From an uncultured Acidobacteriota bacterium (GTDB lineage Bacteria > Acidobacteriota > Vicinamibacteria > Marinacidobacterales > SMYC01): DNA of 64,000 nt. How positions within the stretch are numbered: position 1 is the stretch's first letter; each line of letters begins with the position of its first letter. This document shows positions 7,481-64,000 of the stretch, piece by piece. The notes beneath the pieces are model-generated. The model did no database searches, was not told the origin of the DNA, and saw only the letters and a program-made list of their open reading frames with translations. The DNA lies in the NCBI GenBank assembly GCA_947259165.1, contig CAMYKY010000004.1:10733-74732 (forward strand), given 5' to 3'. The position numbers and the translations under genes are program-made.

Positions 7481-7496
7481 GGGTTCTCCTTCGCCG

Positions 7497-8252: not shown

Positions 8253-8266
8253 TTTGTCGTCTCCGT

Positions 8267-8728: not shown

Positions 8729-9120
8729 TAGCAGTCTCCCAACACGAAGTCGACGACGCTCGCAACCTGTTTGGGCTCGACGGGCTTGGTGAGAAAGTGC
8801 TTGGCGCCGGAATCGAGAGCGGATTTGATCATCTCCTGATAGCCGTTCGAGCTCACCATCACGATTTTCGCCGACGAGTCGTGGCCGATGATTCCCTGAA
8901 CCGCCTCGACGCCCTCCATTTCCGGCATCGTGACGTCCATGATCACCAAATCAGGTTTGAGCTTCAGGTATTGCTCGATCGCTTCGCGTCCGTTTACCGC
9001 GAATCCGGCAGACTCGCCGCCCACCGACGTCAGGATCTTATTCATGTTGCGTCGTGCAAACTCCGAATCATCCACGACGAGAAACCGAAAACTCGATCTC
9101 GGATTGTTCACGCTAACCAT
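8728..9120 (-). CDS. cheY: CheY-like response regulator
   Basis: VVDDS..MDVTMPEMEG..VSS..TKP. Confidence 0.85.
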   Translation of the reverse strand: MVSVNNPRSSFRFLVVDDSEFARRNMNKILTSVGGESAGFAVNGREAIEQYLKLKPDLVIMDVTMPEMEGVEAVQGIIGHDSSAKIVMVSSNGYQEMIKSALDSGAKHFLTKPVEPKQVASVVDFVLGDC

Positions 9121-10195
9121 GACGATCCCCTTTGCTGGCGCTCTGACCGCCCCGCTTCGACAGCACGTTCAGATAGCTTGCCATTTCAGACAGCGGCAAA
9201 ATCCGGTCAATGCCGCCGCGTTCGATCGCGGCTCTCGGCATTCCGTAGACCACCGAGCTCGCCTCGTCCTGCGCGACCGTATGCCCCCCGGCTTCCCGGA
9301 TCGCGGTAACACCATCCGCACCGTCTTCACCCATACCGGTGAGGATGAGCCCGATGGACTTCGAGCCGGAAACTTCAGCAATGGAGCGAAACAGCACGTC
9401 GGCAGACGGCCGGTGCCCCCGTACTGGCTCGGAACGGGTTAGCTGGACGGCAAGTTTCCCGTCTCGCCGCACGAGAACCATGTGATGACCTCCGGGAGCA
9501 ACGAGAGCCAATCCCGCCAGCACCGCATCGCCGTCGGCCGCTTCACGCACTTCGATGGTAGCCAGCTTGGCCAATCGCGCGGCGAATTGAGCGGTAAACC
9601 CCACGGGCATGTGTTGCACGATCAAGAGCGCCGGCCGAAATCCACCCTGGATCTCCGCTAGCAGGGTCGACAGCGCGTTGGGACCTCCCGTGGATACAGC
9701 AATACCTACGACCTCGCGCGCTGACATATCTCGCCCGATCAACAACTGGGGCGGTGAGGAAGGCGTTGAGTCGAGTGTGGGTCGGCGGATCTTGGCCTTC
9801 GCGGCCGCGCGTATTTTTGTCACCAAGTCGTCCCCCAAAGAGTCGACGGGTGTCGAGAAGATACGCTCCGGCTTGGTGATGAAATCGACAGCACCAGCGG
9901 CAAGGCCGTCGAACGTTGCTTGGGCCCCCTTCGACGTGTGCGCCGACAAAAGAATGACGGGCAGCCGAAATCTGTCGACGATCCGCTTGAGCGTCTGCAT
10001 GCCGCTGAGTCGCGGCATCTCGAGATCCAAGGTGATCACGTCCGGTTTGGATTCTGTGAGTCGTTCGATCTTGTCGAGAGCGAACACGCCGTCCATTGCG
10101 GTATCGACCACTTCGATATCGTCGTAAGGCTCGAGGAGCTTCACGAGCAACCGGCGCATGAAGGCCGAATCGTCGACCACGAGCACGCGTATCAC
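9113..10195 (-). CDS. cheB: Chemotaxis methylesterase (receiver + CheB)
   Basis: VLVVDDSAFMR; STGGP, QHMP, RPSAD, LTGMGEDG. Confidence 0.97.
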   Translation of the reverse strand: MIRVLVVDDSAFMRRLLVKLLEPYDDIEVVDTAMDGVFALDKIERLTESKPDVITLDLEMPRLSGMQTLKRIVDRFRLPVILLSAHTSKGAQATFDGLAAGAVDFITKPERIFSTPVDSLGDDLVTKIRAAAKAKIRRPTLDSTPSSPPQLLIGRDMSAREVVGIAVSTGGPNALSTLLAEIQGGFRPALLIVQHMPVGFTAQFAARLAKLATIEVREAADGDAVLAGLALVAPGGHHMVLVRRDGKLAVQLTRSEPVRGHRPSADVLFRSIAEVSGSKSIGLILTGMGEDGADGVTAIREAGGHTVAQDEASSVVYGMPRAAIERGGIDRILPLSEMASYLNVLSKRGGQSASKGDRHG

Positions 10196-12225: not shown

Positions 12226-13061
12226 GACAGGCCTACTTTCTTGTATGCCGTACCGCGGCTGTGATGCACGAACTTGAGCTCGGGGCTCGTCCCTTGCCCG
12301 GACTCCGAGTGGCCTAGAAAGAGGTACCCACCGGGACGCAGCGAGCGAATGAACTTTTCCACCACTCTTTTCTGCTCGTCTGGGTCGAAATAGATCAGGA
12401 CGTTCCGACAGAATACGATGTCGAGATCGCCGAGCCCGTTCTCGTGCTTCAGATTGTGAAAATCGTAGATGACGAGGCGCCTCACTTCATCTTTGACGCA
12501 GTAGCCCTCTGGACACGGCTCAAAAAACCGCCGGCGACGCCGGCGGTCGATGTCTTGAACCTTGGACTCTGGATAGACGCCGTTCGCAGCCCTTTCGAGC
12601 GCAGAAAGCGACAGATCCGATGCATAGATGCGCACGTCCCATGAAGAACGAGTCGTGAGCTGCTCGAGCACCGAGACTGCAATCGAATACGGCTCTTCGC
12701 CGGTAGAGCACCCTGCGCTCCAGATTCTGAGGCTTTGCTCCCCCGACTGGGTCTTGTGCCGGATGAGCTCTGGCAGTGCCACTTGTTCGAGCACTTCGAA
12801 CTGGGGTTGATTGCGAAAAAAGGAGGTCTCGTTGATCGTGAGCACGTCGAGAAGCTGAAGAAGCTCTTCCTCTTGTTCGTTCCCGCGCTGCTTCAAGTAA
12901 CGGTAGTAACGGTAGAAGCTTCCGATGCTCTTGGCGACGAGACGCTTGCCGATTCGCGACGACACGAAAGCCATCTTGTTGTCGGCGAAATAGAGGCCGC
13001 ATTCGTCGTGAATGAAATCGCGAAAGAGACGGAACTCGTCGGCGCTGATCTGCGCGATCAT
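12222..13061 (-). CDS. cheR: Chemotaxis methyltransferase
   Basis: TINETSFFR, WSAGCSTGEEPYS, CRNVLIYFD, GHSES. Confidence 0.97.
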   Translation of the reverse strand: MIAQISADEFRLFRDFIHDECGLYFADNKMAFVSSRIGKRLVAKSIGSFYRYYRYLKQRGNEQEEELLQLLDVLTINETSFFRNQPQFEVLEQVALPELIRHKTQSGEQSLRIWSAGCSTGEEPYSIAVSVLEQLTTRSSWDVRIYASDLSLSALERAANGVYPESKVQDIDRRRRRRFFEPCPEGYCVKDEVRRLVIYDFHNLKHENGLGDLDIVFCRNVLIYFDPDEQKRVVEKFIRSLRPGGYLFLGHSESGQGTSPELKFVHHSRGTAYKKVGLS

Positions 13062-13540
13062 CAGACCTCGCCCGGGGCGACGGCAACGGATGCATCGAGG
13101 GCTTCGGCATCGCCATCCGAAAGAAGGTGGCGTAAATCCAGAATGATGACGAGGCGATCTTCCAACTTCCCAACACCCTGGAGGTAGTCATCATGGATAG
13201 TGTGCTTGAGCTCGTCTGGAGCTGGATCGATCGCATCCGCGGCGAGTTTCATGACTTCGGTCGCCGCATCAACGAGAAACCCCACCGTGAAACCGTCGAG
13301 GTCAACGACAAGAATTCGACTCACCCGGTCCACCGTCGCCTTGCCGAGACCGAGTCGCTCCGCGAGGTCGACGACCGAGACAATCTTGCCACGAAGATTG
13401 ATGATACCGAGCACGTAGTCAGCGGTGCCAGGGACTGAGGTGATCTCCTGAGCCTTGACGATTTCACGCACGGCAAAGATATCGACGCCGAAGGTCTCCC
13501 TACCGATGCGAAAGCAAACGAGATGTGCTGTGCCCGCCAT
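13061..13540 (-). CDS. cheW: CheW scaffold
   Basis: VREIV..VP..GIINLRG..GFLVD. Confidence 0.95.
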   Translation of the reverse strand: MAGTAHLVCFRIGRETFGVDIFAVREIVKAQEITSVPGTADYVLGIINLRGKIVSVVDLAERLGLGKATVDRVSRILVVDLDGFTVGFLVDAATEVMKLAADAIDPAPDELKHTIHDDYLQGVGKLEDRLVIILDLRHLLSDGDAEALDASVAVAPGEV

Positions 13541-13549
13541 GGATGATTC

Positions 13550-15472
13550 TCACGCGCCAGAAAAAGTCTCGACGGAATCGAGTGCGGAGCGGACCTCGTC
13601 GGCCGTCGGCCGCGTCGATTCACCATTCGAGCGCACTGCACGCGAACCGTTTCCGTTCTGAAGAACGTGAAATCGAGAGGTAAGCTCGCGCATCAATCCC
13701 GCTTGGCGTGAAAGCTCCTCCGACGAGGCCGCAAGTTCCGACGAACTCTCGGCGTTTTGCTGAACCATCCCGCGAATCTGTTCGATCGAGTCGACAACTT
13801 GTTCCGTACCGCTCGACTGTTGCTCGGTTGCAGCGCTAATCTCGTGGGTGAGCTCGCCCAGGCGCGACGTCGCTTGTTCGATCTGCTGAGTCCCCGCGGA
13901 TTGTTCGGCAGTCGCTTCGCCGATCTCCTGAGAGCAGCGCGAGACTTCGGTCACCGAACTACCGATATTCTCGAGATTCGAACGGAGCTGCTCGGTACGC
14001 TCAATCCCTGTTGCAACGATGTTCGTCGACTTCTCCATATTCTCGACGGCTTTAGAGACCTGCGACTGAATACGCTGAACCAAATCGGAGATCTCGCCCG
14101 TCGATTTGGCGCTGCGCTCCGCGAGCTTGCGCACCTCTTCGGCCACCACGGCGAAGCCAAGACCGTGCTCACCCGCTCGAGCCGCTTCGATCGCGGCGTT
14201 GAGCGCTAAGAGGTTCGACTGCTCCGCAATCTCGTCGATGACACCCACAATCGTTCCAATGTCCTTGGCCATGCCACCCAGATCTCGGACAAAACCCGCG
14301 GAGGAGCGGATGACTTCCCGAATCTCCCCCATCCCGTGACTCGCGGCTTCCATCGCCGCGCCGCCTTCGTTGACCGCGGCGCTCGCACGCTTCGCGATCG
14401 ACACCAGACGTTCCGCGGTACCCGCCACCGTCTGGACCGAGCGCAGCATGTTCTCGATCGAGGCCAGCGTCTGCGTCGTAGAAGCGGATTGCGACTGCGC
14501 ATTGCGCGCAACATTTTGGATGTTTGCGTTCATCTCATGAAGTGTCGACGTGATGCCTTCTACCGCGCCCACCGTGGACTCGTTACCTCGAGCGGCGTTA
14601 CCAGTGGCACGCGCGACCGAATCACTCCCGGTCGCGACTTCATCGGCGGACGCTTGAACGTGGACAACGATCTCCCGGAGTCCGGCCGAGACGAGGTTGA
14701 ACGCCTTCGAGATCTCGGCCAACTGATCCAGCATGAGGTTGAACGCCATTGCCATTCGCCCAATCTCACCGCCAGCCGCAATATGGATTTTGCGGAAGTT
14801 GACTTGGATCTCTCGCGTCAGGTCACCGCTCGCCATAACCCTCGCCTCTTCGGCAAGCTGCTTCATATCCTGGTTGGCGATATCCTCCGCGGTCTTGGTC
14901 AGGTCGAGAAGCGGGGCCGTCACCTGACGAGCGACGAAGAGGGTTGTCGCGAAGGAGAAAAAGCCGACCACGAGGCTAAAGGCGAGCGCCGTCCACAAGC
15001 TCGCGCGATACTGGGCGGTGATTCTTTGCGTCGAGAGACCTAGCTGGATCGATCCAGTAATGCTTTCCCCGCGTCGCACCGGACCTACAATCTCTAGCGT
15101 GTCATCGCTCTTGGTTGCTTCGAAATCTGTGACGGTATCCGCGACACTCGGGTGCTCCTCGTCTTTGGGATAGCTCAGAAACTCCTGGCCGTCGGCATCG
15201 CGCACGACGATGTAGACCAGGTCCTCGTCCGCGCGAACCCAGTTGAAGACTTGGAGCACCGACTCCTCGTCCTCGAACTCCAGACCTGCAGCAACGCTGT
15301 GGGCGACCATCTGCGTGATGCTCCTCGCCTTGTTCTCGAGAGCTTCTTCACTCGCCGCGCGTTGACGGGACGGGAAGAAGAAAACGATGAAGGTGGCAAA
15401 GACCAACATCATGGCAGCAATGGGCAGGACGAACCGACTTCGAATCGACAGATTCGCAAACCAAGCGGTCAT
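13550..15472 (-). CDS. Methyl-accepting chemotaxis protein (2 TM, periplasmic sensor, HAMP, signalling domain)
   Basis: [40 protein letters not shown]. Confidence 0.97.
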
Positions 15473-48766: not shown

Positions 48767-50740
48767 ATGCCCAAAGCCGAGATTCCCAGCAAAGTCGGTA
48801 AATACGATGTTCGCGGCCTCGTGGGTCGCGGCGCGATGGGTGTTGTCTATAGCGCGGTCGATCCGGCGCTCGGCCGGTCTGTCGCCATCAAGACGATGTC
48901 GATCGCGGAGTCCCCGAACGAGGCCGAGCTGCGTCTGCGCTTCCTGAGGGAAGCTCAAGCAGCGGGTCAGCTCCAGCACCCCAACATCATCACCGTGCAC
49001 GAGCTCTTCGAAGAGGGTGACACCGCGTACCTGGTGATGGAGCTGCTCGAGGGCGCGGCGCTCTCGTCAATCCTGAAGCGGAAGAAAAGCCTCTCTCTCG
49101 GCCAGAAACTGTCGATTATCGATCAAATTGCAACAGGACTCTCCGAAGCCCACGCCCACAAAATCGTTCATCGCGACCTGAAACCCTCGAACGTTTTCGT
49201 CCTCAGAAGCGGCGTCGTCAAAGTGCTCGATTTCGGTGTGGCCAAGGTCGGCGAAGGAGAGCTCACCAAGGCGGGTACCGTGTTTGGTACCGTCGAGTAC
49301 ATGGCGCCGGAGCAGGTGCGCGGGCAAGTGGTCACGCCCCAGGCGGACATTTTCTCGCTCGGCGTCGTCGCGTACGAGGTTCTCGCTGGAAGGAATCCGT
49401 TTCGCGCCGACACGCTCGCGGCATCGGTTTTCAAAATCGTCTCCGACGATCCCGGCAAGCTCAGCGACGAGATGGAAGTACCAGCGGAGATCGAAGCCCT
49501 CGTCGACAAGGCCCTGGCCAAGCAGATGAGAGAGCGTTTTGTCTCGCTCGCCGAGTTCCGAACGGCGCTCGCGGCGGCGATGGCGAACGCCAACCTACCG
49601 CTGGCCGCGCCGGAGCTCAGCGAGGAGGACGTCGTCATCACAAAAGATCGCGGCGACTCGCTCGCGATGTCGGTCGAGCCCCGCGTATCTCAGTGGTCGA
49701 ACGTCGCGGCGCAGGCGGACCTTCTGGAGGAGGTTTACCGCCGGGGTGTCGAGTCCTTTAATGAAGGAAACTTCGAGGACTGCGTCTTGAAGATGAGCCA
49801 GGTGCTCGATGAGGTTCCCGTGCACGCGATGTCGCTGCACTACCTGGCCACGAGCGAGGGGAAGCTCCGCCAAAAACGATTGAGTGAAGACGCAAGACGG
49901 CGCGCTTCGGCTTACTTGTCAGCGATGCGAGATGCGCACAGGCGCGGCGACTCGGTGTTGGTCACCGACCAAGCAAACGAGCTCCTCGCGGTCGATCCCG
50001 AATCACTCGAGGCGCGATGGTATCGTCGCAACGCCGAGGCGCGCCTGCGTGCATCCTCCGTCGGAGGCCGTACCCATTCAACATCTACGGCGACCACAGG
50101 CGATGGCGGGCGCACGGCGTCCAGGTCGCGGGACGGGTCATTGGCTCACCCGGGCGGCAGCTTTGGTTATGCGCCTTCGACCCGCGAGGGACAATTCGGC
50201 TCCGGCCGCACGTTCCCAGGCGCTGACGGCGCCCCAAGTGCCATGGCCTCCCGAGACACGCGCTCCGGAGGCGCCAAAGGGGTCTGGTTTCTCGGCGGCG
50301 TCGCGCTCTTGTTCGTCGCGCTCGTCGGCATGTGGCTCGGAAGCTTGGGCGAGCCGAAGCCCGCGGTGTCCGCGGATCCCATCCAGCTCCCGGGCGTCCG
50401 GAACTCTCCGTTCAACGATCTGGACGACGACGAGACCGTCGTCCTCCGTTTGCCGACACGAGAGCCGGCATTCACGCTCAGCTATGTCATCCCGACGTCG
50501 GTCGTCGCGGGAGAATCCACGACGATCGGTCTGTTCGGACGCGACTTCCCGAGCGACGTGGTTGTGTCCATCGCCGACGAGTCCGTCTCGATCGTCTCGA
50601 CCACGGTGCATAGCGGAGATCACATCGAGCTCCAGCTCCTCGCGGCCGAGCCGCGCGAGTCCATCGAGATCCTGGTCGCCGCTACCGGCGGCTACCGAGC
50701 GAGCGTCCCAATCGAAGTCGAGCTCGCGAGCGAACCCTGA
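48767..50740 (+). CDS. Hanks-type Ser/Thr kinase with TPR-like region, TM segment and external Ig/IPT-like domain
   Basis: GRGAMG, VAIK, HRDLKPSN, DFG, YMAPE; TM segment near the C-terminus. Confidence 0.93.
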   Translation: MPKAEIPSKVGKYDVRGLVGRGAMGVVYSAVDPALGRSVAIKTMSIAESPNEAELRLRFLREAQAAGQLQHPNIITVHELFEEGDTAYLVMELLEGAALSSILKRKKSLSLGQKLSIIDQIATGLSEAHAHKIVHRDLKPSNVFVLRSGVVKVLDFGVAKVGEGELTKAGTVFGTVEYMAPEQVRGQVVTPQADIFSLGVVAYEVLAGRNPFRADTLAASVFKIVSDDPGKLSDEMEVPAEIEALVDKALAKQMRERFVSLAEFRTALAAAMANANLPLAAPELSEEDVVITKDRGDSLAMSVEPRVSQWSNVAAQADLLEEVYRRGVESFNEGNFEDCVLKMSQVLDEVPVHAMSLHYLATSEGKLRQKRLSEDARRRASAYLSAMRDAHRRGDSVLVTDQANELLAVDPESLEARWYRRNAEARLRASSVGGRTHSTSTATTGDGGRTASRSRDGSLAHPGGSFGYAPSTREGQFGSGRTFPGADGAPSAMASRDTRSGGAKGVWFLGGVALLFVALVGMWLGSLGEPKPAVSADPIQLPGVRNSPFNDLDDDETVVLRLPTREPAFTLSYVIPTSVVAGESTTIGLFGRDFPSDVVVSIADESVSIVSTTVHSGDHIELQLLAAEPRESIEILVAATGGYRASVPIEVELASEP

Positions 50741-51020: not shown

Positions 51021-53312
51021 ATGTCGAACGCCAAGTGGCCACACGAAGCCCCGCCAAGGCCCGAGCCCGAAGCGGCCGACTTCTTTCCGCAGACCACCGA
51101 GACCCATCTCCGGGACTATTGGTACATCATCCTCAAGCGACGCTGGATGATTCTCGCTGTGGTTGTTTGCGTCGTCTCCTACTCGGCCGCTCGCGCTCTG
51201 ATGCGAAAGCCAGTCTACTCTGCGACCTCCGTGCTGCAGATCGATCGCGGAAAAATCAACCTCGTGCAAGACGTCATGACGCCCGACTACTGGACCGGTT
51301 ACAATGAGTTTTATCCGACCCAGCAGCGCGTTCTCCAAAGTCGGAACCTCGCCCGGCGTGTGGTTCGACAGCTTCGCTTGTGGGAGCATCCGTACTTCAC
51401 CGGCGGGCATCCGCTCGAAGCCGACGAGCAAACGCTCGAAAATCTCTCCGGCGCAGTCGTCGGGATGCTACAAATCGACCAGATCCGAAACACCCAGCTC
51501 ATGGAGCTGCGTTTCACCACGCTCGACCCACAGGTCTCCGCCGACCTGTCGAATGCGCTCGCACAACAATACATCGCCTTCAGTAGCGAGAGCGAGACGA
51601 CGCTGGCCCGGGACACGGCCGGATTCATCGGAGAGCAAGTCGAAAAGATTCAAAAAGAAATTCAGCAGCGGGAGAAACTTCTCCAGGAGTACAGCCAGCG
51701 CGAAGACTTGATGATGGTAAACGAAAAAGAGCTCAGCGTCATGCGCCAACTGGAAGAGCTCAATACCGCCTACACTCAAGCACGCGCGGCGCGAGCGAAC
51801 GCGGAAGCCAACTTCCGCAGTATCTCTGCCGACGCATCCGGTCTACCGGAAGTCCAGTCGAACCCTTCGATTGAAGATCTGCGTAGCGAACGAGAGCGCG
51901 CTCGAAGGAGCGTTGCGGATCTCAGCTCCAAGTTCAAAGACGACTGGCCCGAGCTCCGGCGTGCTCGCGAAACGCTAGCAGACATCGACCGGCGCTTGGT
52001 CCAAGAGCAGCGGACGGTCGCGAAGAAGCTCGTGGCCCAGTCCCAAGTCGAGTACCGGGCAGCGCTCGAACGAGAAACCCTCCTGCTCCAAGAAGTCGAG
52101 GCCCAGAAGCAGGAAGCCCAGGAGCTCACCGAGCTCACGTCGAACTATAACCAGATCAAGGCGGAGGTCGACAATCAACGCTCCATGCTCCAGCAGCTCT
52201 TGCGGCGCCGCACCGAGACGGGACTCTCCGCCGAGCTCGGCGAGCGCCAGCCCGTCAACGTACGCATCGTGGAGGCCGCTCTCGTACCGAGAGGAGCGAA
52301 TGGGCCTGGGCTCAAGAGAAACTTGTTCATGGGGGCGTTGATAGGTATCGGACTGGCTCTAGGCGCAGCTTTTTTTCTCGACTACTGGGAAACCGCCATT
52401 TACACGATCGAGGATTTGAGAAGGCACGTGCCGCTCCCCTACATGGGGATGGTGCCGCGTCTCGAGGCCGCGTCGTTTGCGCTCTGGGCGGGCAGCAGGG
52501 GGAAATTCCTAGCTTACGACCCTGGCGAGGCGGTCAGCCCGCGGCGGGGCAAGAGCATGAATCGAACCCGCTCGGCGCTCGCGCTCTCCCAAACGACGAA
52601 AGTCGCGTCGCGCGCCAAAGAAGACACCTCGATGATCGCCGAGCGCTTCAAATTCCTTCGTGGCTCCCTCCTGCTATCGACCCCCGGAGCGCCGCCGCGA
52701 ACCGTGCTCGTGACCGGACCCGACAAGAACGCCGGCAAGACGTTCGTCGCGTGCAATCTCGCGACGTCCCTCGCGGATCTCAACAAGAAAGTCCTTCTCA
52801 TCGACGCCGATCTGCGCAATCCCCAACTTCACAAGGTGTTCCGCTTCAAGAATCGAGTCGGGTTGTCGAACGTTCTCTCCGGTCAAACGACGATCGAGAA
52901 AGGCTGTATCGTCTCGACTCCCATCCCGAACCTCTATGTCTTGCTTGCGGGGCCCGCAAGCCCGACACCCGCCGAGCTTCTAGGCTCCTCCAAGATGGAA
53001 GAGACGATGGCGCAGTGCATGGAGCACTTCGACTATGTCCTGCTCGATTCGGCGCCGCTTCTCCCCGTATTCGACTCGCATTACTTGACGGTGCGCGCCG
53101 ACGCGAACTTGCTCGTAGTCCGAAGCGGCCACACGTCGCGACACGCGGTAACGCAGAGTTTGGATCTCATCGATCGCGTCGGCGGCCGTGTCACCGGCGT
53201 GGTTTTGAACGATGTCAATCTCGCTGACTACGCTCAAAACTACTACTACAGCTACCACAGCTACGAGTACGGCACCTATGCCGAAGACCCGGTAGAGCGA
53301 AGGGCGGGTTGA
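51021..53312 (+). CDS. wzc: Polysaccharide co-polymerase/BY-kinase (Wzc/GumC)
   Basis: HLRDYW.II.KRRW, periplasmic coiled coil, AGKT, IDADLR.P, LLDSAP, C-terminal Tyr cluster YYYSYHSYEYGTY. Confidence 0.95.
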   Translation: MSNAKWPHEAPPRPEPEAADFFPQTTETHLRDYWYIILKRRWMILAVVVCVVSYSAARALMRKPVYSATSVLQIDRGKINLVQDVMTPDYWTGYNEFYPTQQRVLQSRNLARRVVRQLRLWEHPYFTGGHPLEADEQTLENLSGAVVGMLQIDQIRNTQLMELRFTTLDPQVSADLSNALAQQYIAFSSESETTLARDTAGFIGEQVEKIQKEIQQREKLLQEYSQREDLMMVNEKELSVMRQLEELNTAYTQARAARANAEANFRSISADASGLPEVQSNPSIEDLRSERERARRSVADLSSKFKDDWPELRRARETLADIDRRLVQEQRTVAKKLVAQSQVEYRAALERETLLLQEVEAQKQEAQELTELTSNYNQIKAEVDNQRSMLQQLLRRRTETGLSAELGERQPVNVRIVEAALVPRGANGPGLKRNLFMGALIGIGLALGAAFFLDYWETAIYTIEDLRRHVPLPYMGMVPRLEAASFALWAGSRGKFLAYDPGEAVSPRRGKSMNRTRSALALSQTTKVASRAKEDTSMIAERFKFLRGSLLLSTPGAPPRTVLVTGPDKNAGKTFVACNLATSLADLNKKVLLIDADLRNPQLHKVFRFKNRVGLSNVLSGQTTIEKGCIVSTPIPNLYVLLAGPASPTPAELLGSSKMEETMAQCMEHFDYVLLDSAPLLPVFDSHYLTVRADANLLVVRSGHTSRHAVTQSLDLIDRVGGRVTGVVLNDVNLADYAQNYYYSYHSYEYGTYAEDPVERRAG

Positions 53313-54478
53313 TCCCCATTCCGGACGCCGCCGAAGGGCCCCCAAGCCCCGAGAACCTTGCTGCCCTCGACGATGTCGTAAAGACGTGCGGGAGCCGGAT
53401 CCGCTCCGGCAAAAGCTTCTTCGAAACCGCTGAATCCGAACGTCTGTCACCCCTCCTCTACCACGTGTTCGATCGTCTCGGTTGGCCCGACACCGTGTCC
53501 AAGGAAGAGCAGCACCACTTCCGGAAGGCTTATTACCTGAGTGCCGGCCAGAACGTCGAGCTGCTGGGTGCGCTATCCGAGGCGGCCCTCGCTCTGCGCG
53601 AACAGGATATCCCCTGTGTCGCGTTCAAGGGCGCCGCACTGGTGAAGCGAATCTACCCCAACGTCGCCGTGCGTCCCATGGGCGATGTCGACGTCTATGT
53701 ACCCCCTGCTAGCGCCGAGCACGCCGAGGCAGTGCTCTCCACGCTTGGCTATCGGCCCTTTTGTCCTGACATGACCCCGGGTCTGAGTCGACGCATTCGT
53801 CACGCGCGCCTGTACGTCGGTGGGACCCGGGAGACGACGAGCATCGACCTCCACTGGTCCTTGGTCGGACACAGCAACGATGCCCGATCTCCCGATCCAC
53901 ACTGGCTGCGCCGAAATATTGTCGCGCGCAATGGCGATCCTTGGATGCATTTTTCCGACACCGCGCACCTTCTCTACCTGAGCGCGCACATGAAGCTGCA
54001 ACACTACGACGAGGAGATTCCCCTGTTGTGGTGTCTCGACTTCTACCTCCTCGCGACTCGGGGGGACATCGCTTGGGACCAGCTCTTGAGCGATGCTCGC
54101 CGCTTTGGCTGGACCGACGCCGTGAGCGCCGTCGCATTCGATGTCCGAGAGCGTCTAGGCGTCGCGCTACCCGCACCCCTCGAGCGGATCGCTAGCGCTC
54201 CGAAAGCCCCGCTTCATCGTCACGGCGCGCGGAACGAGCCCGAGCGCGTCTTGAACGAGCTCCGAGCCCTGGGGTGGTCGGGTCGCCTCGCGCTTGTGAG
54301 AGCCTACGTCCTGCCGTCACCCACCTACATCCGCTTCCGCTACCAGACGCTGAGCTGTCCTCTCGGGTATGCCAAACGTTGGAGCACGATGCTCGCCCGG
54401 GCGGGCACTATTCTTCTGCGCGCACTGCGGCGCAAGCCCGGGACTCGCCCACTATTGACTTCGCGAGAAAATTGCTAG
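53309..54478 (+). CDS. Nucleotidyltransferase family protein (NTP_transf_5-like)
   Basis: FKGAAL..IYP..RPMGDVDV, IDLHW; TTGA overlap with wzc. Confidence 0.88.
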   Translation: MIPIPDAAEGPPSPENLAALDDVVKTCGSRIRSGKSFFETAESERLSPLLYHVFDRLGWPDTVSKEEQHHFRKAYYLSAGQNVELLGALSEAALALREQDIPCVAFKGAALVKRIYPNVAVRPMGDVDVYVPPASAEHAEAVLSTLGYRPFCPDMTPGLSRRIRHARLYVGGTRETTSIDLHWSLVGHSNDARSPDPHWLRRNIVARNGDPWMHFSDTAHLLYLSAHMKLQHYDEEIPLLWCLDFYLLATRGDIAWDQLLSDARRFGWTDAVSAVAFDVRERLGVALPAPLERIASAPKAPLHRHGARNEPERVLNELRALGWSGRLALVRAYVLPSPTYIRFRYQTLSCPLGYAKRWSTMLARAGTILLRALRRKPGTRPLLTSRENC

Positions 54479-54501
54479 GATCGTTTTGTCATCTAAAACC
54501 C

Positions 54502-55419
54502 ATGAGCACTGAGAGCCTTGGAGCGCGCTACCTCGCCCACCCAGATCGATTTCCCGAGTGGGGCGAGGGAGCGCCGTTCGGCCCGCGAGAGACCTCGATG
54601 ACCATCTGCGGTACGCGCGTTCGCATCTCGGGACTGAGCCACGAGCAAGACCGCGCGATTCACGCTTTGTGGCCTGACTTCGTGGGCGAGGACGTCGCTG
54701 AGCCAGCCGCTTTGAGCGTTTTTCGGACTCCTGAGTCGACATTCAAGAAACTGGATCGCTGGGTCTACGAGCTCGACTTCGACTACCAGCCAGGGTCCTT
54801 GCGCCTCGCCGGGCTCGATCTCATGGCGCGGGTCGACATGAGCTCACCGCTACGCGCCGCACTCTGGATCGCTACCGAGTCGCCCGACACCTTCCACGGT
54901 GCGTTTGAGAACTTTCTTCGTGTCGTCGTCGCGTATGCGGCGATGCATCGAGGCGGCGCCTTGGTGCACAGCGCTGCCGTCGTCGACGGTGACGACGCCT
55001 GGCTGTTCGTCGGCCACTCAGGCGCCGGCAAGTCGACGGTCTCCCAGCTAGGACTCGACTCGGGTCGGCGCGTGCTCAGCGACGACCTGAACCCGATTCT
55101 CCCACGCGAGGACAACGGGATCGACGTCGTCGGTAGCCCCTTCCTCGGCGATCTCGGCACACGCTCGCCCGCGCGCCATCGACTCTCGGCTATCTATCGC
55201 CTGGAACAAGGAACAGAGGATAGTCTCCGCCCCATGGGCGCCGCCGAAACGCTCGCGTGTCTGATGGCATGCGCACCTTACATCAACCGTGATCGGCACC
55301 GAGCCGATACGCTTTGTTCGAACCTATTGGAGATGGCACAACAGGTGCCTGCCAAGGTTTTGACCTTTCGTCGGGACGGAACGTTCTGGCCGCTTCTAGA
55401 GAGGACAGCGCTTGCCTGA
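54502..55419 (+). CDS. HPr kinase-like P-loop kinase (RiPP-associated type)
   Basis: VHSAAV..LFVGHSGAGKST..LSDD..SPF. Confidence 0.82.
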   Translation: MSTESLGARYLAHPDRFPEWGEGAPFGPRETSMTICGTRVRISGLSHEQDRAIHALWPDFVGEDVAEPAALSVFRTPESTFKKLDRWVYELDFDYQPGSLRLAGLDLMARVDMSSPLRAALWIATESPDTFHGAFENFLRVVVAYAAMHRGGALVHSAAVVDGDDAWLFVGHSGAGKSTVSQLGLDSGRRVLSDDLNPILPREDNGIDVVGSPFLGDLGTRSPARHRLSAIYRLEQGTEDSLRPMGAAETLACLMACAPYINRDRHRADTLCSNLLEMAQQVPAKVLTFRRDGTFWPLLERTALA

Positions 55420-55714
55420 TTTGAATCTCGTATTTAGACGTAAGGATGACATTCGCTACCGTGTCGTCGGAGACGAGGCCATCGTCGTTCGCCAGAACGC
55501 CGCGGAGGTTCTTGCGCTCAATGACGTTGGCGCGCGTGTTCTCGAGCTCATCGACGCCGACAAGACGCTCGCACAGGTGATCGCGACGATGTCGGGTGAG
55601 TACGACGTCCGCCCAGACGAGCTCGCGAACGATGTGCAACGTTTTGTTGCCGCTATCCGGGATGCCGGTATCGTCGTGGATGTCAGCGAGGAAGTCAGCG
55701 AAAAGGTCCGCTGA
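55412..55714 (+). CDS. PqqD-family RiPP recognition element
   Basis: YRVVGDEAIVV..LNDVGARVLELID....LAQVI..MSGEYDV....DVQRFV..I..AGIV. Confidence 0.92.
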   Translation: MPDLNLVFRRKDDIRYRVVGDEAIVVRQNAAEVLALNDVGARVLELIDADKTLAQVIATMSGEYDVRPDELANDVQRFVAAIRDAGIVVDVSEEVSEKVR

Positions 55715-55719
55715 AAATC

Positions 55720-56820
55720 GTGCGTACCAAGAGAGAGCGTAAGGTTTCGAGCTCCCAAAGCCTGGAGCCGAGCTACGACGAGACCATCCTCGGGACGTGG
55801 GAGAACCATCACCTGTTCTCCGCTCTCGTGGAGTTGACCTATCGATGCAACCTCGATTGCTACTTTTGTTACAACGATCTCGATCTCGCCGGAGACCCCC
55901 TGCGTCTCGCCGACTACGAGCGTCTGTTCGAAGAAATGCGCACGCTCGGTTGCCTGCATTTGACGTTGTCCGGCGGCGAACCGCTCGCCCATCCAGATTT
56001 TTTCGCCATCGGAGCCAAAGCGCGCGAGCTCGACTTCGTAGTCCGAGTGAAAACTAACGGGCATGGGCTCGATCGTGAGCTCGCGGGCAGACTCCGAAGC
56101 GAAGTCGACCCGTTCATCGTCGAAGTCAGCCTGCACGGCGCTTGCGCTGAAACCCACGATCGACAAACGCGCGTTGCCGGAAGCTTCGATCGGCTCGTGC
56201 ACAACCTGGACGTGATGCGAGCGACGGGCCTGCGCGTCAAAATCAACACCGCGCTGACCCGTTGGAACGAGCGCGAGATCGAAGGTATGTTCGCGATTGC
56301 AGACCGCTTTGCCGTACCGCTCACCCTCGATCCTGAGGTCACGCCGCGTGACAACGGAGACCGGGACCCGATGCGCATCAGCGCGTCACCGGAGGGATTG
56401 CGCCATCTCGTCGCGGTACAGGCGAGTCGGCGCAAGGGGACACAAGCCGAGGTCCTGCGAGAAGGCGACGCTGAGATTCACAGCCGGGATCCCGACAGGC
56501 ACTGTGGCGCGGGCGCGTCGGGCATCGCGATCGATCCTTATGGCAATGTCTACCCGTGCGTTCAATGGCGACGGGCCATCGGAAACGTCCACGGAAGCTC
56601 GCTCCAGGGGATCTGGCGCGCGAATGGAAAACTCGATGAAATCCGGCGACTCACCGTCGAAGCCAAAGGAGTCGTGAGCGGCCACGACTCCGAAGTCCCA
56701 CTCGTCGGATTCTGTCCCGGTGTCGCCGAGATGTTGACGGGCGATCCTCTGGCCGTTCCCGAGAGTACATCAACCCGCGCCAACGTCCTGTCGGAGTTGC
56801 CGCTCCACCCCGTCCAATAA
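55720..56820 (+). CDS. Radical SAM protein with SPASM/Twitch extension (PqqE-like)
   Basis: ELTYRCNLDCYFC, SGGEPL, TNG, VSLHG, CGAG..IDPYGNVYPC, FCPG. Confidence 0.93.
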   Translation: MRTKRERKVSSSQSLEPSYDETILGTWENHHLFSALVELTYRCNLDCYFCYNDLDLAGDPLRLADYERLFEEMRTLGCLHLTLSGGEPLAHPDFFAIGAKARELDFVVRVKTNGHGLDRELAGRLRSEVDPFIVEVSLHGACAETHDRQTRVAGSFDRLVHNLDVMRATGLRVKINTALTRWNEREIEGMFAIADRFAVPLTLDPEVTPRDNGDRDPMRISASPEGLRHLVAVQASRRKGTQAEVLREGDAEIHSRDPDRHCGAGASGIAIDPYGNVYPCVQWRRAIGNVHGSSLQGIWRANGKLDEIRRLTVEAKGVVSGHDSEVPLVGFCPGVAEMLTGDPLAVPESTSTRANVLSELPLHPVQ

Positions 56821-57045: not shown

Positions 57046-57222
57046 TCAGGAGCGCTGGGCGAGCGGGCAGGTGCCGACGTTTGCCTTGGCGGGCGGGCGC
57101 GGGGTGCACAGCGCGGCCATAGCTTCGAGCGGCTCGCGGTAGAGGATCTCGGGCCGGCGATATTTCTTCTTGGTGGATGCGGGTCCGTTGGCGGAGGCTC
57201 GTTTCTTTTCGTCGTGTTTCAT
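57046..57222 (-). CDS. Putative RiPP precursor peptide (58 aa)
   Basis: MKHDEKKRASANGPASTKKKYRRPEILYREPLEAMAALCTPRPPAKANVGTCPLAQRS. YxxPxI leader, two Cys, adjacent to RRE and rSAM genes. Alternative GTG start at 57231. Confidence 0.75.
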   Translation of the reverse strand: MKHDEKKRASANGPASTKKKYRRPEILYREPLEAMAALCTPRPPAKANVGTCPLAQRS

Positions 57223-57354
57223 GGGTGTCACTACTATGTTAGCAGAGTTGGAGTTCGGTCTGCAGATTCTGAATCCGGAGCGAACGGCGTCGCGCCCGCG
57301 AGTGTGTCCGGTCCCAACAAGCCGCTGCGTCGTCGCGCCTCTATCCCCCTCTCC

Positions 57355-58638
57355 CTAGGGTCTCAGGATTAGGTTGAAGTTGGCGACCACGCGGCCTTTA
57401 TCGAACGCGACGACGTTCGAGCGACGATCGAAGTACTGAGTAGTCACGCCCACGAACCAGGATCTTTGGATGTTGTACTCGAACGACAACTGCAACGACA
57501 GATGCTCGTCCACGATCTCTTCCTCAACGATCTCGCCGTCGACGTCTTGCGTGATCCTCGGTCGGGGATAGTTGTTGTCACCGACAATCGCTCCTGGCTC
57601 GATCGAAAATCTCTCGTGGAGCTGCCATCTAAAGAAAGCTCCGACGCGATTCTGAACGAAGTACCAGTTGTCAGTGAGGATCGACGGCACGACATCGCGC
57701 TCATAGACGCCGCGTAGCCGATGCCGGCTGGCGGAAGTCAGCCGAACGTCGGCGGCACCGATGGGCCCGGTATAACCGAACCGAGAGTCCGCAACGGGCA
57801 CGAGCTTTCGAAAGCCAACCATCACTCGTCCGGTAATACCGGTCTCGTTCGTCGACGGAACCAGCGCCCGGGGCGACTTGGGCGAAAAATCGAACCCCGC
57901 TCGTGCACCGTACGACTCGTTGTCTCTGATGTCATCGTCAAAAGCTTGCGTTTCGAAAAAGCCCTCGACTATGGCTCGCGTCTTCGAAGTGACTTGCCGA
58001 GCGAAGTCCACCGAGATCGAGTCCTGGACGTTGTTGAGCCGCGACGGAATGGTCGGGTCCTCGAGCGTCTGGTCCCGAATTTCGGTTTTGTACTGATGGT
58101 ATCGAGCCCGAAGCTCATGCCGCCAACCCAGCGCCATGGTCAACGATGTTTCGAAATGATTCGTCCGGGTCTCGACAGGAAAATCGAACTCGCTGGTCGG
58201 ACGCTGGGTCTCGTCGCGAAACTCGTCGTCGACTGCAAGAAGGAATCGCCGACTACCCCATCCACCTCCGACACGCGTGATGTTGAAGACTTGTCGCAGC
58301 GCGACTTGCTCGCGGTAGTAGACAAAATCGACTTCTTGATACACGTCGAAAAATGCCCGGGAACCTAAGGGCAGACGGAGCTGAATCCCCGGACCGAACA
58401 TCGCGCTGATGTCCTGCTGTGGATCCGGCGTCGACAACGTGTTTGAGTCATATCCAGTCGAGAATCGAACGACCGGCGTTGCATAAAACGGCCCGAGCTC
58501 GAAGAGTCCGTCGCGGACGCCGTCGAGCTCGTTTTCGATCAAGTTCACAGACTGGGAGCTAGCAGAGGCGGACGCGAGCAACGCAACCGCAACCGACGTC
58601 AGGACAGTGCCGACACGGCCAGAGAAGGAAATCATCAT
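57355..58638 (-). CDS. Outer-membrane beta-barrel of EPS loci (BBP2/DUF2320-like)
   Basis: Signal peptide; GYDSN motif; alternating beta strands; C-terminal YFDRRSN..FDK. Confidence 0.75.
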   Translation of the reverse strand: MMISFSGRVGTVLTSVAVALLASASASSQSVNLIENELDGVRDGLFELGPFYATPVVRFSTGYDSNTLSTPDPQQDISAMFGPGIQLRLPLGSRAFFDVYQEVDFVYYREQVALRQVFNITRVGGGWGSRRFLLAVDDEFRDETQRPTSEFDFPVETRTNHFETSLTMALGWRHELRARYHQYKTEIRDQTLEDPTIPSRLNNVQDSISVDFARQVTSKTRAIVEGFFETQAFDDDIRDNESYGARAGFDFSPKSPRALVPSTNETGITGRVMVGFRKLVPVADSRFGYTGPIGAADVRLTSASRHRLRGVYERDVVPSILTDNWYFVQNRVGAFFRWQLHERFSIEPGAIVGDNNYPRPRITQDVDGEIVEEEIVDEHLSLQLSFEYNIQRSWFVGVTTQYFDRRSNVVAFDKGRVVANFNLILRP

Positions 58639-59807
58639 GCGGCTCCTAGAATGCGACCCACGGCCCCATGCCGAAACACCGCATCGATCAACCCCCGGTG
58701 CCAGTCGAAATTTGCCTTTTCTTGAATGATTCTCATGACGGTCTCACGCCGGGCGAGCGACATCAGCCGCTCGATGCCCCAATCATTCATGAGTTTGAAG
58801 CTCCGTCTGAGTTTCAGCCCGGTCTCGATCTCTCGCTGAAGCAACGCGCGCCAACGGTGCTCATAGGCGCTTAGCGCAGCAGCGTCCAGGTGATCCGAAG
58901 CAAGGGACGAGTCCAGGGTTTCCGCCGCGAGCTCGGCAGTTCGCATCCCGTAGTAGATGCCGCCGCACGTAGTGGTCTTGATATGACCCGCGGCTTCCCC
59001 CACGACCAGGATCCGGTCGCCAAAACTCTGACGGAGAAACCCGAGCGGAAGCACGCTACATTGAATCGGCCCCGGCGCAGTTTCGGCCCGCGACGCGAGA
59101 TCAGAGCGCGCGAGAAAACGTCGTAGCGTGTTCGGCCCGTCCCGCCGACACAAAAGTCCAACCTTCGCACGGCCTTCCCCGAGAGGAACGACCCACGCGA
59201 AACCCTCGGGCGCCCATCTCTGGCCAAAGTACACCTCGACCTGCCGGGCTGAAAGCGCGAGCTCCGTCTGAACCCCTAGCAGGCGAGACGGCACGTCGTT
59301 GAATCCAAGGGTTCTTAGCAGCGGCATTCCGGCGCCGGTCGCGACAACGACCGCACGGCACCGCAGCGCCCGCTGGGAGGGCTCCTCGGACGCTGCGTCG
59401 GAGACTCTGACATTCACGCCACCGAAGACCGTTTCGACGGCCGTGGCGCGATGGCTCAACAACACGTGCGCTCCAGCCTCGCGCGCGCGTGCGCCGAGGT
59501 AACGGTCGAACTCCCCGCGCACGACGACATGGGCCAGCTCGTTTGCGGTCTCGAACTCCCAACGAAGCCCTCGCGGCGAAACGAACTCGAGATTCGATAG
59601 GCTATGCTGGATGAGATCGTTCGGCAAATGGAACCGCTCGAAGGCCTCGACACCAAGAACCCCGCTGCAATTCACCGGGGTTCCAATCTGCGCATGCTCC
59701 TCGAGCACCGCCACGTGCCATCCTCGTTCGGATAGACGCGTGGCTGCAGTCAGACCCGCAGGGCCAGCTCCCACGACGACGACGTCGTACTTCTCTTGAA
59801 CGGTCAG
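58635..59807 (-). CDS. Geranylgeranyl reductase-family FAD oxidoreductase
   Basis: YDVVVVGAGPAG, IG.PVNCSG, R..FD, FAWVVP, VGEAAG....TCGGIYYG. Start probably CTG overlapping the upstream stop. Confidence 0.85.
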   Translation of the reverse strand: MTVQEKYDVVVVGAGPAGLTAATRLSERGWHVAVLEEHAQIGTPVNCSGVLGVEAFERFHLPNDLIQHSLSNLEFVSPRGLRWEFETANELAHVVVRGEFDRYLGARAREAGAHVLLSHRATAVETVFGGVNVRVSDAASEEPSQRALRCRAVVVATGAGMPLLRTLGFNDVPSRLLGVQTELALSARQVEVYFGQRWAPEGFAWVVPLGEGRAKVGLLCRRDGPNTLRRFLARSDLASRAETAPGPIQCSVLPLGFLRQSFGDRILVVGEAAGHIKTTTCGGIYYGMRTAELAAETLDSSLASDHLDAAALSAYEHRWRALLQREIETGLKLRRSFKLMNDWGIERLMSLARRETVMRIIQEKANFDWHRGLIDAVFRHGAVGRILGAA

Positions 59808-60450
59808 AGCTTCTTCTCCCTTATCTCCCACTTGCCTCGGAACGTGATCCAAAACGAGAGGGCGATCAGTTTGATGTCTAGCCAGAAAGATTGATTTTCG
59901 ACGTAGAGTCGATCGTAGCGAAATTTATGTCGCCGCGGCAGGTCGCGCGGCGCATAAATCTGGGCGATACCGGTCAGACCGGGAGTGACGCTATGGCGCA
60001 TCGCGAAACCCGGGATGGTCGAAAGTGCAACCGGCGCGCCCGACGCTCCCACTTCCACTTCAGCGCTCGCGAGGGCGCGCGGGCCGACGAACGACATGTC
60101 ACCCCGAAAGATGTTCCACAGCTGTGGCAGCTCGTCCATGGCGGTGCCACGCAAAAGTCGACCGACGGGTGTAATTCTCGGATCCCGTTCGCTCGCCTGC
60201 ACGGCTCCGAACCGTTTGTCGGCGTCGGGAACCATCGAGCGAAACTTGAGACCGCGGAAAGTTCTTCCGCCTTTGCCAACCCGATCCTGGCTAAAGAACA
60301 CCGGGCCGCCGTCCGACAATTTCACCGCAGCCGCGATGAGACTCGCAAGGGGCAAAGCAACGACGAGCCCAATGCCCGACAGCATCACGTCAAGACCTCG
60401 CTTCGCAAGAGGCCCGACGATGTTGCCGCTCGTGAGAACCGACGTCGGTA
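59804..60450 (-). CDS. Priming phosphoglycosyltransferase (Bac_transf, small monotopic PGT)
   Basis: KRGLD, GPVFFSQDRVG, KFRSM, DPRIT, DELPQLWNI.RGDMSFVGPR, PGLTG.AQ. Start coordinate approximate. Confidence 0.9.
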
Positions 60451-61646
60451 TCGAGTGGCTCTCCCTTGAAGAGCTCTCCGTAGGCACGGACTTGTTTTCT
60501 GCGATCGAATCGAACACCGGCTCGTCGAGCATTCTGACCGAGTCTCTCGGCGAGCTCTCGATCGCGGTAAAAGCGCGTGATCTCATGAACCAACCCTCCC
60601 ACATCACCCGGGGTAATGACCGAGCCGCAATCGTACTCGGTAGTGATCGCCGCAACTTCTGTCTTCGCCTCCACCGCGGCGACATAGGGACGCCCCGCGG
60701 CCAGAATTCCATAGAGCTTGCTAGGGACGATGTAGCCCGCCAACCCGGGCTTTAGCGAAACGATAAAAACGTCAGCGGTGGCATACGAGTCCCGCAAGCT
60801 CTCACGAGGCTGATACGGCAAAAAGACGACATTGTCGAGCTCCCGGCGCGCGACCTCGCTCTGAAGGGCCTCGCGACGAACCCCGTCACCGACAATCAGA
60901 AAGACCACATCGCGCTCGCTCACGATTATAGAAGCGGCCTCGATCAAACAATCTAGATTCTGGGACAGGCCAATATTGCCGGAATGCATGACGACGAATT
61001 TGTCGGCGAGCCCATGGGCCCGGGAGAACTCGTTGTCTTTCGGTGCCGGTGAAATCGCCTCGGTATCCGCCCAGTTGTGAATCACCGAAACTTTGGACGG
61101 ATCCGCATTTTTTCCCTCGACGAGACGACCCTTCATCGTGTCACCGAGGGCAACGATTCGATCGGCACGCTTGACCAGAAAACAGTTCACCTGTTGCAAG
61201 ATGGCGTTGACGGTCTCGCTACGGAAATCCTCGAGGAGAGTCGCGACTTCCGGGAAGATGTCCTGGCACAAGAAGACGAATCGTGCGCCCATGCGCTTGG
61301 ACGTCATCCATGCTACCAGGCCGATGATTGGGGGATCGGTCAGTGCCACGACGATGTCCGCACGTGGTAAACGCAGCGACACCCAAAAAGCCACGAGAAA
61401 ATAGGTGACATAGTTCGCAAACCGTCCCAAAAAACCGCGTCGGGCGAGTCGCGTGCCGCGGGCGCGAACGATTCTCACGCCTTCGTGGGTGATGGCGTCC
61501 GGCTTCGAGCCGTCCGGCGAAGGCCCGGAGACCACCGTGACGTCGAAGCCGTGCTCTCGCACCAGATCCTGGGTGAGCTCGGTCAGTAGCTGGCCGGTCG
61601 CACCGGTGTCAGGGTAGTAAGAGCGATTAAAGAATACGATCCGCAT
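60390..61646 (-). CDS. GT4 glycosyltransferase (WbuB/WcaI-like)
   Basis: NRSYYPD, QDIFPE, HNWAD, HSGNIG.SQ, VPSKLYG. Confidence 0.92.
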   Translation of the reverse strand: MRIVFFNRSYYPDTGATGQLLTELTQDLVREHGFDVTVVSGPSPDGSKPDAITHEGVRIVRARGTRLARRGFLGRFANYVTYFLVAFWVSLRLPRADIVVALTDPPIIGLVAWMTSKRMGARFVFLCQDIFPEVATLLEDFRSETVNAILQQVNCFLVKRADRIVALGDTMKGRLVEGKNADPSKVSVIHNWADTEAISPAPKDNEFSRAHGLADKFVVMHSGNIGLSQNLDCLIEAASIIVSERDVVFLIVGDGVRREALQSEVARRELDNVVFLPYQPRESLRDSYATADVFIVSLKPGLAGYIVPSKLYGILAAGRPYVAAVEAKTEVAAITTEYDCGSVITPGDVGGLVHEITRFYRDRELAERLGQNARRAGVRFDRRKQVRAYGELFKGEPLDTDVGSHERQHRRASCEARS

Positions 61647-61649
61647 GCG

Positions 61650-64000
<2,351 letters not shown>

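Follow-up and report, generated by a model that had tools for sequence, protein, structure and literature searches.

This study examined a peptide-tailoring cassette in a 64,000-nucleotide stretch of DNA (the window; positions 10,733 to 74,732 of contig CAMYKY010000004.1, assembly GCA_947259165.1) from an uncultured Acidobacteriota bacterium. A sequence-only reading of this DNA had proposed that a kinase and a nucleotidyltransferase (NTase) might build a phosphate-linked sugar on the C-terminal Ser of a short precursor peptide. [quoted passage not shown]

51021..53312, plus strand: Wzc-type chain-length determinant/tyrosine autokinase (TIGR01005, E 1e-70; TIGR01007, 158.8 bits, cut-off 108; Pfam Wzz and AAA_31)
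53309..54478, plus strand: NTP_transf_5 nucleotidyltransferase of the PsmN/LppN family (PF14907)
54502..55419, plus strand: P-loop kinase of HprK/PEPCK fold (weak sequence matches, conserved motifs, AlphaFold2 fold)
55412..55714, plus strand: PqqD-family RiPP recognition element (PF05402, E 3.3e-14; 53.4 bits, cut-off 23.4)
55720..56820, plus strand: rSAM/SPASM enzyme (PF04055, E 3.1e-19; PF13186, 31.6 bits, cut-off 21.5)
57046..57222, minus strand: precursor peptide gene, 58 aa (ATG at 57222, alternative GTG start at 57231), convergent to the cassette operon

The wzc gene opens the operon that bears the cassette. The NTase start overlaps the wzc stop at 53312, and the kinase open reading frame (ORF) opens at 54274, with the ATG at 54502, 24 nt past the NTase stop, taken as the probable start. 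The claim of the sequence-only reading that both enzymes sit directly behind wzc was borne out by this overlap, by the NTP_transf_5 match of the NTase (PF14907, E 1.5e-47; 162.7 bits, cut-off 31.2) and by the HprK/PEPCK fold of the kinase. The PqqD and rSAM genes, which that reading did not mention, belong to the same operon downstream of both.

The precursor ORF spans 57046-57231 on the minus strand, and from the ATG it encodes a peptide ending in CPLAQRS, so the terminal Ser had been read correctly. A Lys-rich N-terminus is followed by KKKYRRPEIL, which carries the leader motif KKxYxxPx[IL], and then by LYREPLEAMAALCTPRPPAKANVGTCPLAQRS. The core holds Cys39 and Cys51 and closes with Ser58, and in the precursors of the window's group no Ser or Thr other than the terminal Ser is invariant. 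When loci of 17-18 kb from nine relatives were compared by tblastn with the window proteins, the precursor ORF was recovered in eight of them (E 1e-6 to 2e-23). Searching 401 genomes of the class with a profile built on 12 precursors gave orthologues at E <= 1e-16 in 15 (the window's and 14 others), and every one of the 15 also has a kinase orthologue. Three genomes carry a kinase orthologue and no precursor match; two of these (G014 and G076) have it on truncated contigs, and the third (G018) is a complete genome. In G018 the cassette (L021, G018:C1, 7665-11214) keeps the order Wzc-NTase-kinase-PqqD-rSAM, yet there is no recognisable precursor anywhere in the genome; the NTase there spans two reading frames, and past the rSAM the genes are unlike those of other same-family loci. 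No NCBIfam family was found for any of six precursor peptides checked. On the strength of these comparisons, the precursor is judged to be a real gene and part of the cassette.

Precursor endings and tailoring enzymes

An iterative hidden Markov model (HMM), with the 12-peptide alignment as its seed, searched the last 75 residues of all 22,177 ORFs of at least 30 aa in the window and the fetched loci. The search settled on 58 strings, two of which were shorter versions of others, leaving 56 distinct peptides. Of these, 55 end in Ser and one in Ala (54 of 55 in Ser without L017, which stems from the unpublished genome G027), with the limit that the model covered the C-terminus and is slightly biased toward similar endings. 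Ten further candidates missed by the HMM were found by a leader-motif regular expression and inspection: eight end in Ser (L041, three copies at L044, L089, L150, L158 and L160), one in Thr and one in Gly. Altogether, the candidate precursors at loci with both kinase and rSAM, from several phyla, number 66, with 63 ending in Ser and one each in Thr, Gly and Ala, against a background in which Ser ends 12.8% of all ORF tails. The sequence-only reading had set out beforehand that kinase-bearing loci should have a terminal Ser or Thr, and 64/66 do, so that reading passed its own test.

At least three peptide groups can be told apart, and their cores do not align between groups. CxPxPPAKxNxGxCPxGPISS is the consensus in the window's group, a second group has a PYEKPAVAWEQPLE leader and two Cys, and a third has three Cys and ends in GS. 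The three have in common their leader motif, their Cys residues and the final Ser. It can therefore be argued that the last residue, kept while the core diverges, is itself under selection.

Fold searches were needed to place both the kinase and the NTase because sequence searches of solved structures gave P-loop-level matches only for the kinase profile and no match for the NTase. The kinase has weak matches to ScmC, HprK_rel_A/B and PEPCK_ATP (NCBIfam/Pfam). Its AlphaFold2 model, built from a 68-sequence alignment (pLDDT 95.7), aligned at full length with ATP-dependent PEPCK (1ii2_B; Z 14.3, root-mean-square deviation (rmsd) 4.8, 252 residues aligned), and Foldseek likewise points to PEPCK. 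Residues 150-305 aligned with four HprK/P structures (Z 10.1-11.1, rmsd 2.6-3.2, 115-122 residues aligned). H156, the P-loop G171-T179 and S193-D194 are conserved, with H156, G176, K177, T179 and D194 invariant in the 68 sequences, and the motif reads H-S-A-A ... G-x-S-G-A-G-K-S-T ... S-D-[DE]. The fold, P-loop, catalytic Asp pair and His of an HprK/PEPCK-fold enzyme are thus all present. The window kinase is homologous to two kinases of Paenibacillus silvestris (locus L043), closest to one of the type found with linear polyphosphorylated peptides (LPPs; 33% identity over 166 aa, E 2e-23) and also to one of the lasso type (43% identity over 49 aa, E 6e-10). A predicted complex of kinase, precursor, ATP and Mg scored 0.20 where the mark is 0.32, which weighs neither way.

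In the NTase, K107, G108, R122, D126, D128, H227 and D244 are invariant in a 13-sequence alignment, and the DxD motif is kept in 13/13 sequences. The core of its AlphaFold2 model (residues 83-281; pLDDT 84.4 for the model) resembles MenT1 (Z 14.3), ANT(2'') (4xje, Z 13.2) and LnuA (Z 11.7), with a weaker likeness to FKRP (Z 7.9); all four are transferases of a nucleotidyl or phospho-alcohol group onto a hydroxyl. PF14907 is also the family of the NTases in the L043 clusters, the lasso-type one having 19% identity to the window NTase over 266 aa (E 3e-10).

The window PqqD has weak matches to the lasso, PQQ and Scm PqqD models. For the rSAM enzyme the best NCBIfam match is MftC (105.2 bits against a cut-off of 265), and among solved structures PqqE (E 3.6e-13) and SkfB come closest to it in sequence. 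None of the kinases or rSAM enzymes tested, from the window or its relatives, reached a curated NCBIfam cut-off. The rSAM enzyme keeps CxxxCxxC, and in the window's group the C-terminal SPASM Cys are reduced to 3 of the usual 7, which suggests a single, twitch-like auxiliary cluster. The rSAM enzyme of the second peptide group is also down to 3, and a more distant group keeps 7-8. The features of a generic rSAM/SPASM RiPP system are present, namely the CxxxCxxC core, auxiliary Cys, a PqqD-type recognition element and a nearby short Cys-bearing precursor.

Distribution and polysaccharide setting

The kinase has matches at E <= 0.001, with full-length orthologues, in 24 of 61 related genomes. 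In seven genomes of the window's family the order is the same, with a Hanks-type Ser/Thr kinase (STK) gene followed by Wzc, NTase, kinase, PqqD and rSAM, facing an exopolysaccharide (EPS) operon. Two loci of another family (L027, L028) have precursor, kinase, PqqD and rSAM on one strand, with the precursor directly upstream and no Wzc. Against 1.84 billion representatives, the kinase profile matched 475 at E <= 1e-30 (these being 50%-identity clusters), 5,385 at E <= 1e-10 and 22,804 at E <= 0.001. Among the matches listed, distant loci come from Acidobacteriota, Planctomycetota, Nitrospira, Anaerolineales, Desulfobacterales, Omnitrophota and Pirellulales, with one Paenibacillus. Both here and at additional loci from the class, an rSAM/SPASM gene adjoins the kinase almost without exception; contigs at L037, L038, L078, L082, L088 and L129 were too short to judge. 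Loci chosen by rSAM similarity alone all had a kinase match (13/13), so there is no clean control in which the rSAM occurs without the kinase. Loci L046 and L047 (Rhizobium, Pararhizobium) were dropped, having P-loop-only matches and no rSAM or NTase.

One genome (G124) carries two partial cassettes. At L162 (G124:C10) the order is precursor-PqqD-kinase with no rSAM gene within 17 kb, and the peptide has a degenerate leader and a single Cys, one having been lost, and still ends in Ser. At L163 (G124:C28) a precursor and an rSAM gene lie together with no PqqD or kinase within 16 kb, and the peptide has two Cys and ends in Ser-Ser. The two may work together, though this is a single genome.

NTP_transf_5 genes were found in the window and in 7/7 fetched same-family loci. 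Beyond the window's family, 18 of 40 loci have one accompanying the kinase and rSAM, whether or not Wzc is present. Because such genes adjoin kinase-rSAM pairs that have no Wzc match (e.g. L030, L084, L151, L153 and L154), the NTase was assigned to the peptide cassette and not to Wzc. In three genomes (G025, G062 and G096) a PF14907 gene lies 4-12 kb away from the cassette.

Some variants of the cassette were observed along the way. A Peptidase_C25 (gingipain-like) gene, a candidate leader peptidase that the window does not have, adjoins the cassette at L035 (5995-6963), L040 (75-3062) and L091 (6693-9200); these loci come from Nitrospira, Omnitrophota and a single genome within the window's class. 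A Pirellulales locus (L044) holds three tandem precursor genes, rSAM, an ABC gene and an NTase. Its ORF at 8851-9993, which contains the kinase P-loop region, also matches archaeal-type signal peptidase I (TIGR02228, E 1.2e-7), and the locus seems intermediate between cassettes of the LPP type and those of the rSAM type. A Desulfobulbaceae locus (L041, 6341-10724) has three rSAM genes in a row with an ABC exporter downstream, and the second ORF, of 671 aa, also contains the kinase region and looks like an rSAM-kinase fusion.

The surroundings of the cassette in the window include the following features.

48767..50740, plus strand: Hanks-type STK upstream of wzc (PF00069, E 7.7e-55)
57355..63979, minus strand: convergent EPS operon (library scans; synteny kept in same-family genomes)
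59804-60712, minus strand: priming phosphoglycosyltransferase
60390-61646, minus strand: GT4
61650-62618, minus strand: fcl (GDP-fucose synthase)

The EPS operon encodes a BBP2_2 porin, a geranylgeranyl-reductase-family flavoprotein, the priming phosphoglycosyltransferase, GT4, the GDP-fucose synthase and a carbamoyltransferase, and the precursor gene sits at its 3' end. The NDP-sugar genes described by the sequence-only reading as lying nearby (fcl, GT4 and the priming phosphoglycosyltransferase) are therefore present, on the convergent strand. The STK has a long C-terminal extension, and its position upstream of wzc is kept in same-family genomes. Farther away, positions 7100-15472 (minus strand) hold a chemotaxis-like operon with MCP, CheW, CheR, CheA, CheB, CheX, two receiver proteins and a GAF protein, with DUF4388 and PilZ genes after it; this region is unrelated to the cassette.

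Outside the window's family, 9 of 40 loci (L031, L036, L040, L080, L081, L155, L157, L158 and L160) have a Wzc-like gene in the roughly 9 kb of fetched flanks (tblastn, E < 1e-4). Five genomes that were checked have 2-4 Wzc-like loci each, and the chance of adjacency is therefore estimated at about 1%. Wzc-type genes thus occur near the cassette far above chance, and this recurs across phyla. Using Pfam, 9 of 15 loci had polysaccharide genes within 7.5 kb and 6 had none. In Bacilli, LPP and paeninodin clusters co-localise with capsular loci, and both are restricted to Bacillota according to Popov et al. 2026 (PMC13381572). The recurrent Wzc co-location makes the proposed link between phosphopeptides and capsule or biofilm polysaccharide testable outside that phylum.

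Predicted phosphorylation of the terminal Ser and its alternatives

The best-supported reading of these data is that the kinase phosphorylates the C-terminal Ser of the precursor, a prediction given a probability of roughly 55%. In the proposed mechanism PqqD would bind the YxxPx[IL] leader and the rSAM enzyme would modify the two invariant Cys, probably into thioether-type cross-links. The HprK-like kinase would then transfer phosphate from ATP to the C-terminal Ser side chain, perhaps more than once, in the manner of PsmK and LppK. Where an NTP_transf_5 enzyme is present, as in the window, it might extend the phosphate with a nucleotide-derived or sugar group, and by analogy such action on the Ser phosphate is plausible. 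The product would act in or alongside the Wzc-dependent EPS pathway. The nearest precedent for a terminal Ser comes from the lasso systems. PsmK adds one to three phosphates to a C-terminal Ser and is dead as D158A/D159A, and PsmN is required for the +162 and +324 Da additions on the phosphorylated forms and is dead as D134A/D136A, as described in PMC6993621. Three arguments favour the kinase as the user of the Ser: this lasso kinase precedent, the fact that no further Ser or Thr in the precursors is invariant, and the rSAM-less variant in G124, a single case. The near-invariance of the terminal Ser makes its predicted phosphorylation well supported by inference, and it is also a sharp prediction that is cheap to test.

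Several points weigh against this reading. The evidence for the cassette consists of sequence comparison and predicted structures. The genomes are kin and not independent trials, the counts overstate independence, and part of the precursor set was chosen by eye among motif matches. Three precursors end in something other than Ser (L036 in Gly, L152 in Ala and L159 in Thr), and no precursor was recognised at L021, L090, L149 and L156 despite adequate flanks. In the window's operon no leader peptidase or exporter was seen. The kinase type that is closest among those characterised, LppK, polyphosphorylates Ser3 of the core and not the C-terminus, and LppN had no activity in the heterologous host Bacillus subtilis (PMC13381572). 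Finally, since kinase and rSAM co-occur in nearly every locus, co-occurrence does not allow the terminal Ser to be attributed to one enzyme over the other. Of the exceptions, the Ala-ending precursor (L152, G218:C1, about 9048-9200) is followed by an in-frame TGA, eight codons ending in Gly-Ser and a second TGA, and the rSAM gene there is split in two. Either the locus is decaying, or the TGA is a read-through or selenocysteine codon near the position of the third Cys.

The coupling of kinase and rSAM leaves room for the explanation that the terminal Ser serves the rSAM enzyme, a leader or follower peptidase, or export, and that the kinase acts on another residue, on a non-peptide substrate or as an ATP-dependent scaffold. 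MftC, the best NCBIfam match of the rSAM enzyme, acts on a C-terminal residue, and the internal target of LppK points in the same direction. However, the match to MftC is far under its cut-off (105 vs 265 bits), the precursors offer the kinase no other invariant Ser or Thr, and the rSAM-less locus in G124 loses a Cys and keeps the terminal Ser, albeit with n=1. On balance this explanation is considered unlikely. It is also conceivable that the phospho-Ser is an intermediate whose elimination yields dehydroalanine, and that the final product is free of phosphate and bears an amide or pyruvoyl group at its C-terminus or a Cys-dehydroalanine cross-link. Class III/IV lanthipeptide synthetases dehydrate Ser by way of a kinase, and the precursor Cys residues could add to the dehydroalanine. 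Library scans, however, detected no lyase or cyclase domain in the operon, and an NTase acting on the phosphate fits better with a phosphate that is retained. The characterised HprK-like RiPP kinases leave a stable phosphate or polyphosphate (PMC6993621 and PMC13381572), and elimination is held to be very unlikely.

The least probable of these alternatives is that the NTase, and perhaps the kinase, modify sugars or lipid-linked repeat units for the polysaccharide pathway and merely lie beside a separate rSAM peptide cassette. The placement of the window NTase between wzc and the kinase is consistent with this, as is the fact that NTase-fold enzymes such as FKRP act on glycans. On the other hand, the Wzc-free kinase-rSAM loci with an NTP_transf_5 gene listed above, the presence of that family in the lasso and LPP clusters of L043, and the adjacency of the kinase gene to those of the precursor and PqqD in another family's loci all speak against this.

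Beyond phosphorylation of the terminal Ser itself, any sugar or EPS link is speculative, and the one observation in its favour is the recurrent co-location with Wzc-type and other polysaccharide genes. A covalent link between peptide and EPS is rated as decidedly doubtful. If it were true, the NTase would convert the phospho-Ser into a nucleotide-activated or sugar-bearing phosphodiester, leading to a peptide-capped or peptide-primed EPS. The broadest version, in which the window would be the first representative of a large RiPP class, as yet without a name, from Gram-negative bacteria and further phyla besides Bacillota, whose peptides are cross-linked by rSAM, (poly)phosphorylated at the terminal Ser and joined by the NTase to a sugar or a Wzc-pathway polysaccharide, is improbable to about the same degree.

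Comparison with known peptide systems

The lasso systems of paeninodin (PadeK) and pseudomycoidin (PsmK, PsmN) share with the window an HprK-like kinase, a PF14907-type NTase, a discrete PqqD, a [Y/W]xxP leader motif and a precursor with a terminal Ser. However, neither the Asn_synthase cyclase nor the B2 Transglut_core3 protease was found among the window ORFs scanned, both of which were found in the positive control L043, and the window has an rSAM/SPASM enzyme, two invariant Cys and a host that is not of the Bacillota. Within 48.7-64 kb, library scans of the ORFs turned up neither a lasso cyclase or B2 protease nor a signal peptidase or exporter, and the same holds for the upstream ORFs of at least 120 aa that were scanned, in a region of the chemotaxis-like operon and housekeeping genes. 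A lasso reading was rejected because no cyclase or B2 protease was found. The analogy to lasso kinases in the sequence-only reading is sound, as the kinase has homologues among kinases of both the LPP and the lasso type and the NTase is of the same Pfam family. Its interpretation as a whole is supported in part: the system is not a lasso system and has rSAM/SPASM instead.

LPP systems resemble the window in having a kinase, a recognition element and an NTP transferase, a YxxP leader and a polysaccharide-locus setting, as described in PMC13381572. The LPP-type cluster of L043 (precursor, kinase, PqqD, a small ORF, an ABC exporter and NTP_transf_5) adjoins a paeninodin-like lasso cluster (Asn_synthase, Hpr_kinase_C, PqqD, Transglut_core3 and NTP_transf_5) whose precursor also ends in Ser, and this pairing is the arrangement reported there by Popov et al. 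2026. Unlike LPP systems, the window has no archaeal-type signal peptidase I (LppS) and no MsbA-like exporter within 48.7-64 kb. Of the LPP leader YxxPxVLxHQxIxFETxxS it shares YxxPx[IL] only, the remainder reading LYREPLEAMAALC. LPPs come without an rSAM enzyme and are reported to be restricted to Bacillota.

In parts list, the closest curated systems are NCBIfam SynChlorMet (ScmC/D/E/F) and HPr-rel-A, which combine HprK-like, PqqD-like and rSAM/SPASM proteins and whose models score best for the window kinase. The scores are nevertheless well short of the cut-offs for both SynChlorMet (ScmC 30.9 vs 125, ScmD 25.2 vs 100, ScmE/F 77.1 and 68.2 vs 400 bits) and HPr-rel-A (HprK_rel_A/B 19.3 and 16.7 vs 200, PqqD_rel_X 18.7 vs 35 bits), and a limited literature search found no paper using the name SynChlorMet. 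The PqqD-dependent rSAM enzyme and the short Cys-containing precursor also recall rSAM/SPASM thioether RiPPs (sactipeptides and ranthipeptides) and the maturases of PQQ and mycofactocin, from which the window differs in its 3 of the usual 7 SPASM Cys and in the coupling of a kinase and an NTase to the rSAM enzyme. A mycofactocin/PQQ reading was rejected on scores under the cut-offs, such as that of MftC. A limited literature search, from which the supplements of PMC13381572 were outside the scope, found no paper or curated family describing the cassette.

Taken together, these comparisons place the cassette as an rSAM RiPP system with kinase and NTase tailoring that is a sibling of both the lasso and the LPP systems but belongs to neither. 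Tailoring by a kinase and an NTP_transf_5 enzyme was previously known only from the lasso peptides and LPPs of Bacillota, and here it is coupled to an rSAM enzyme.

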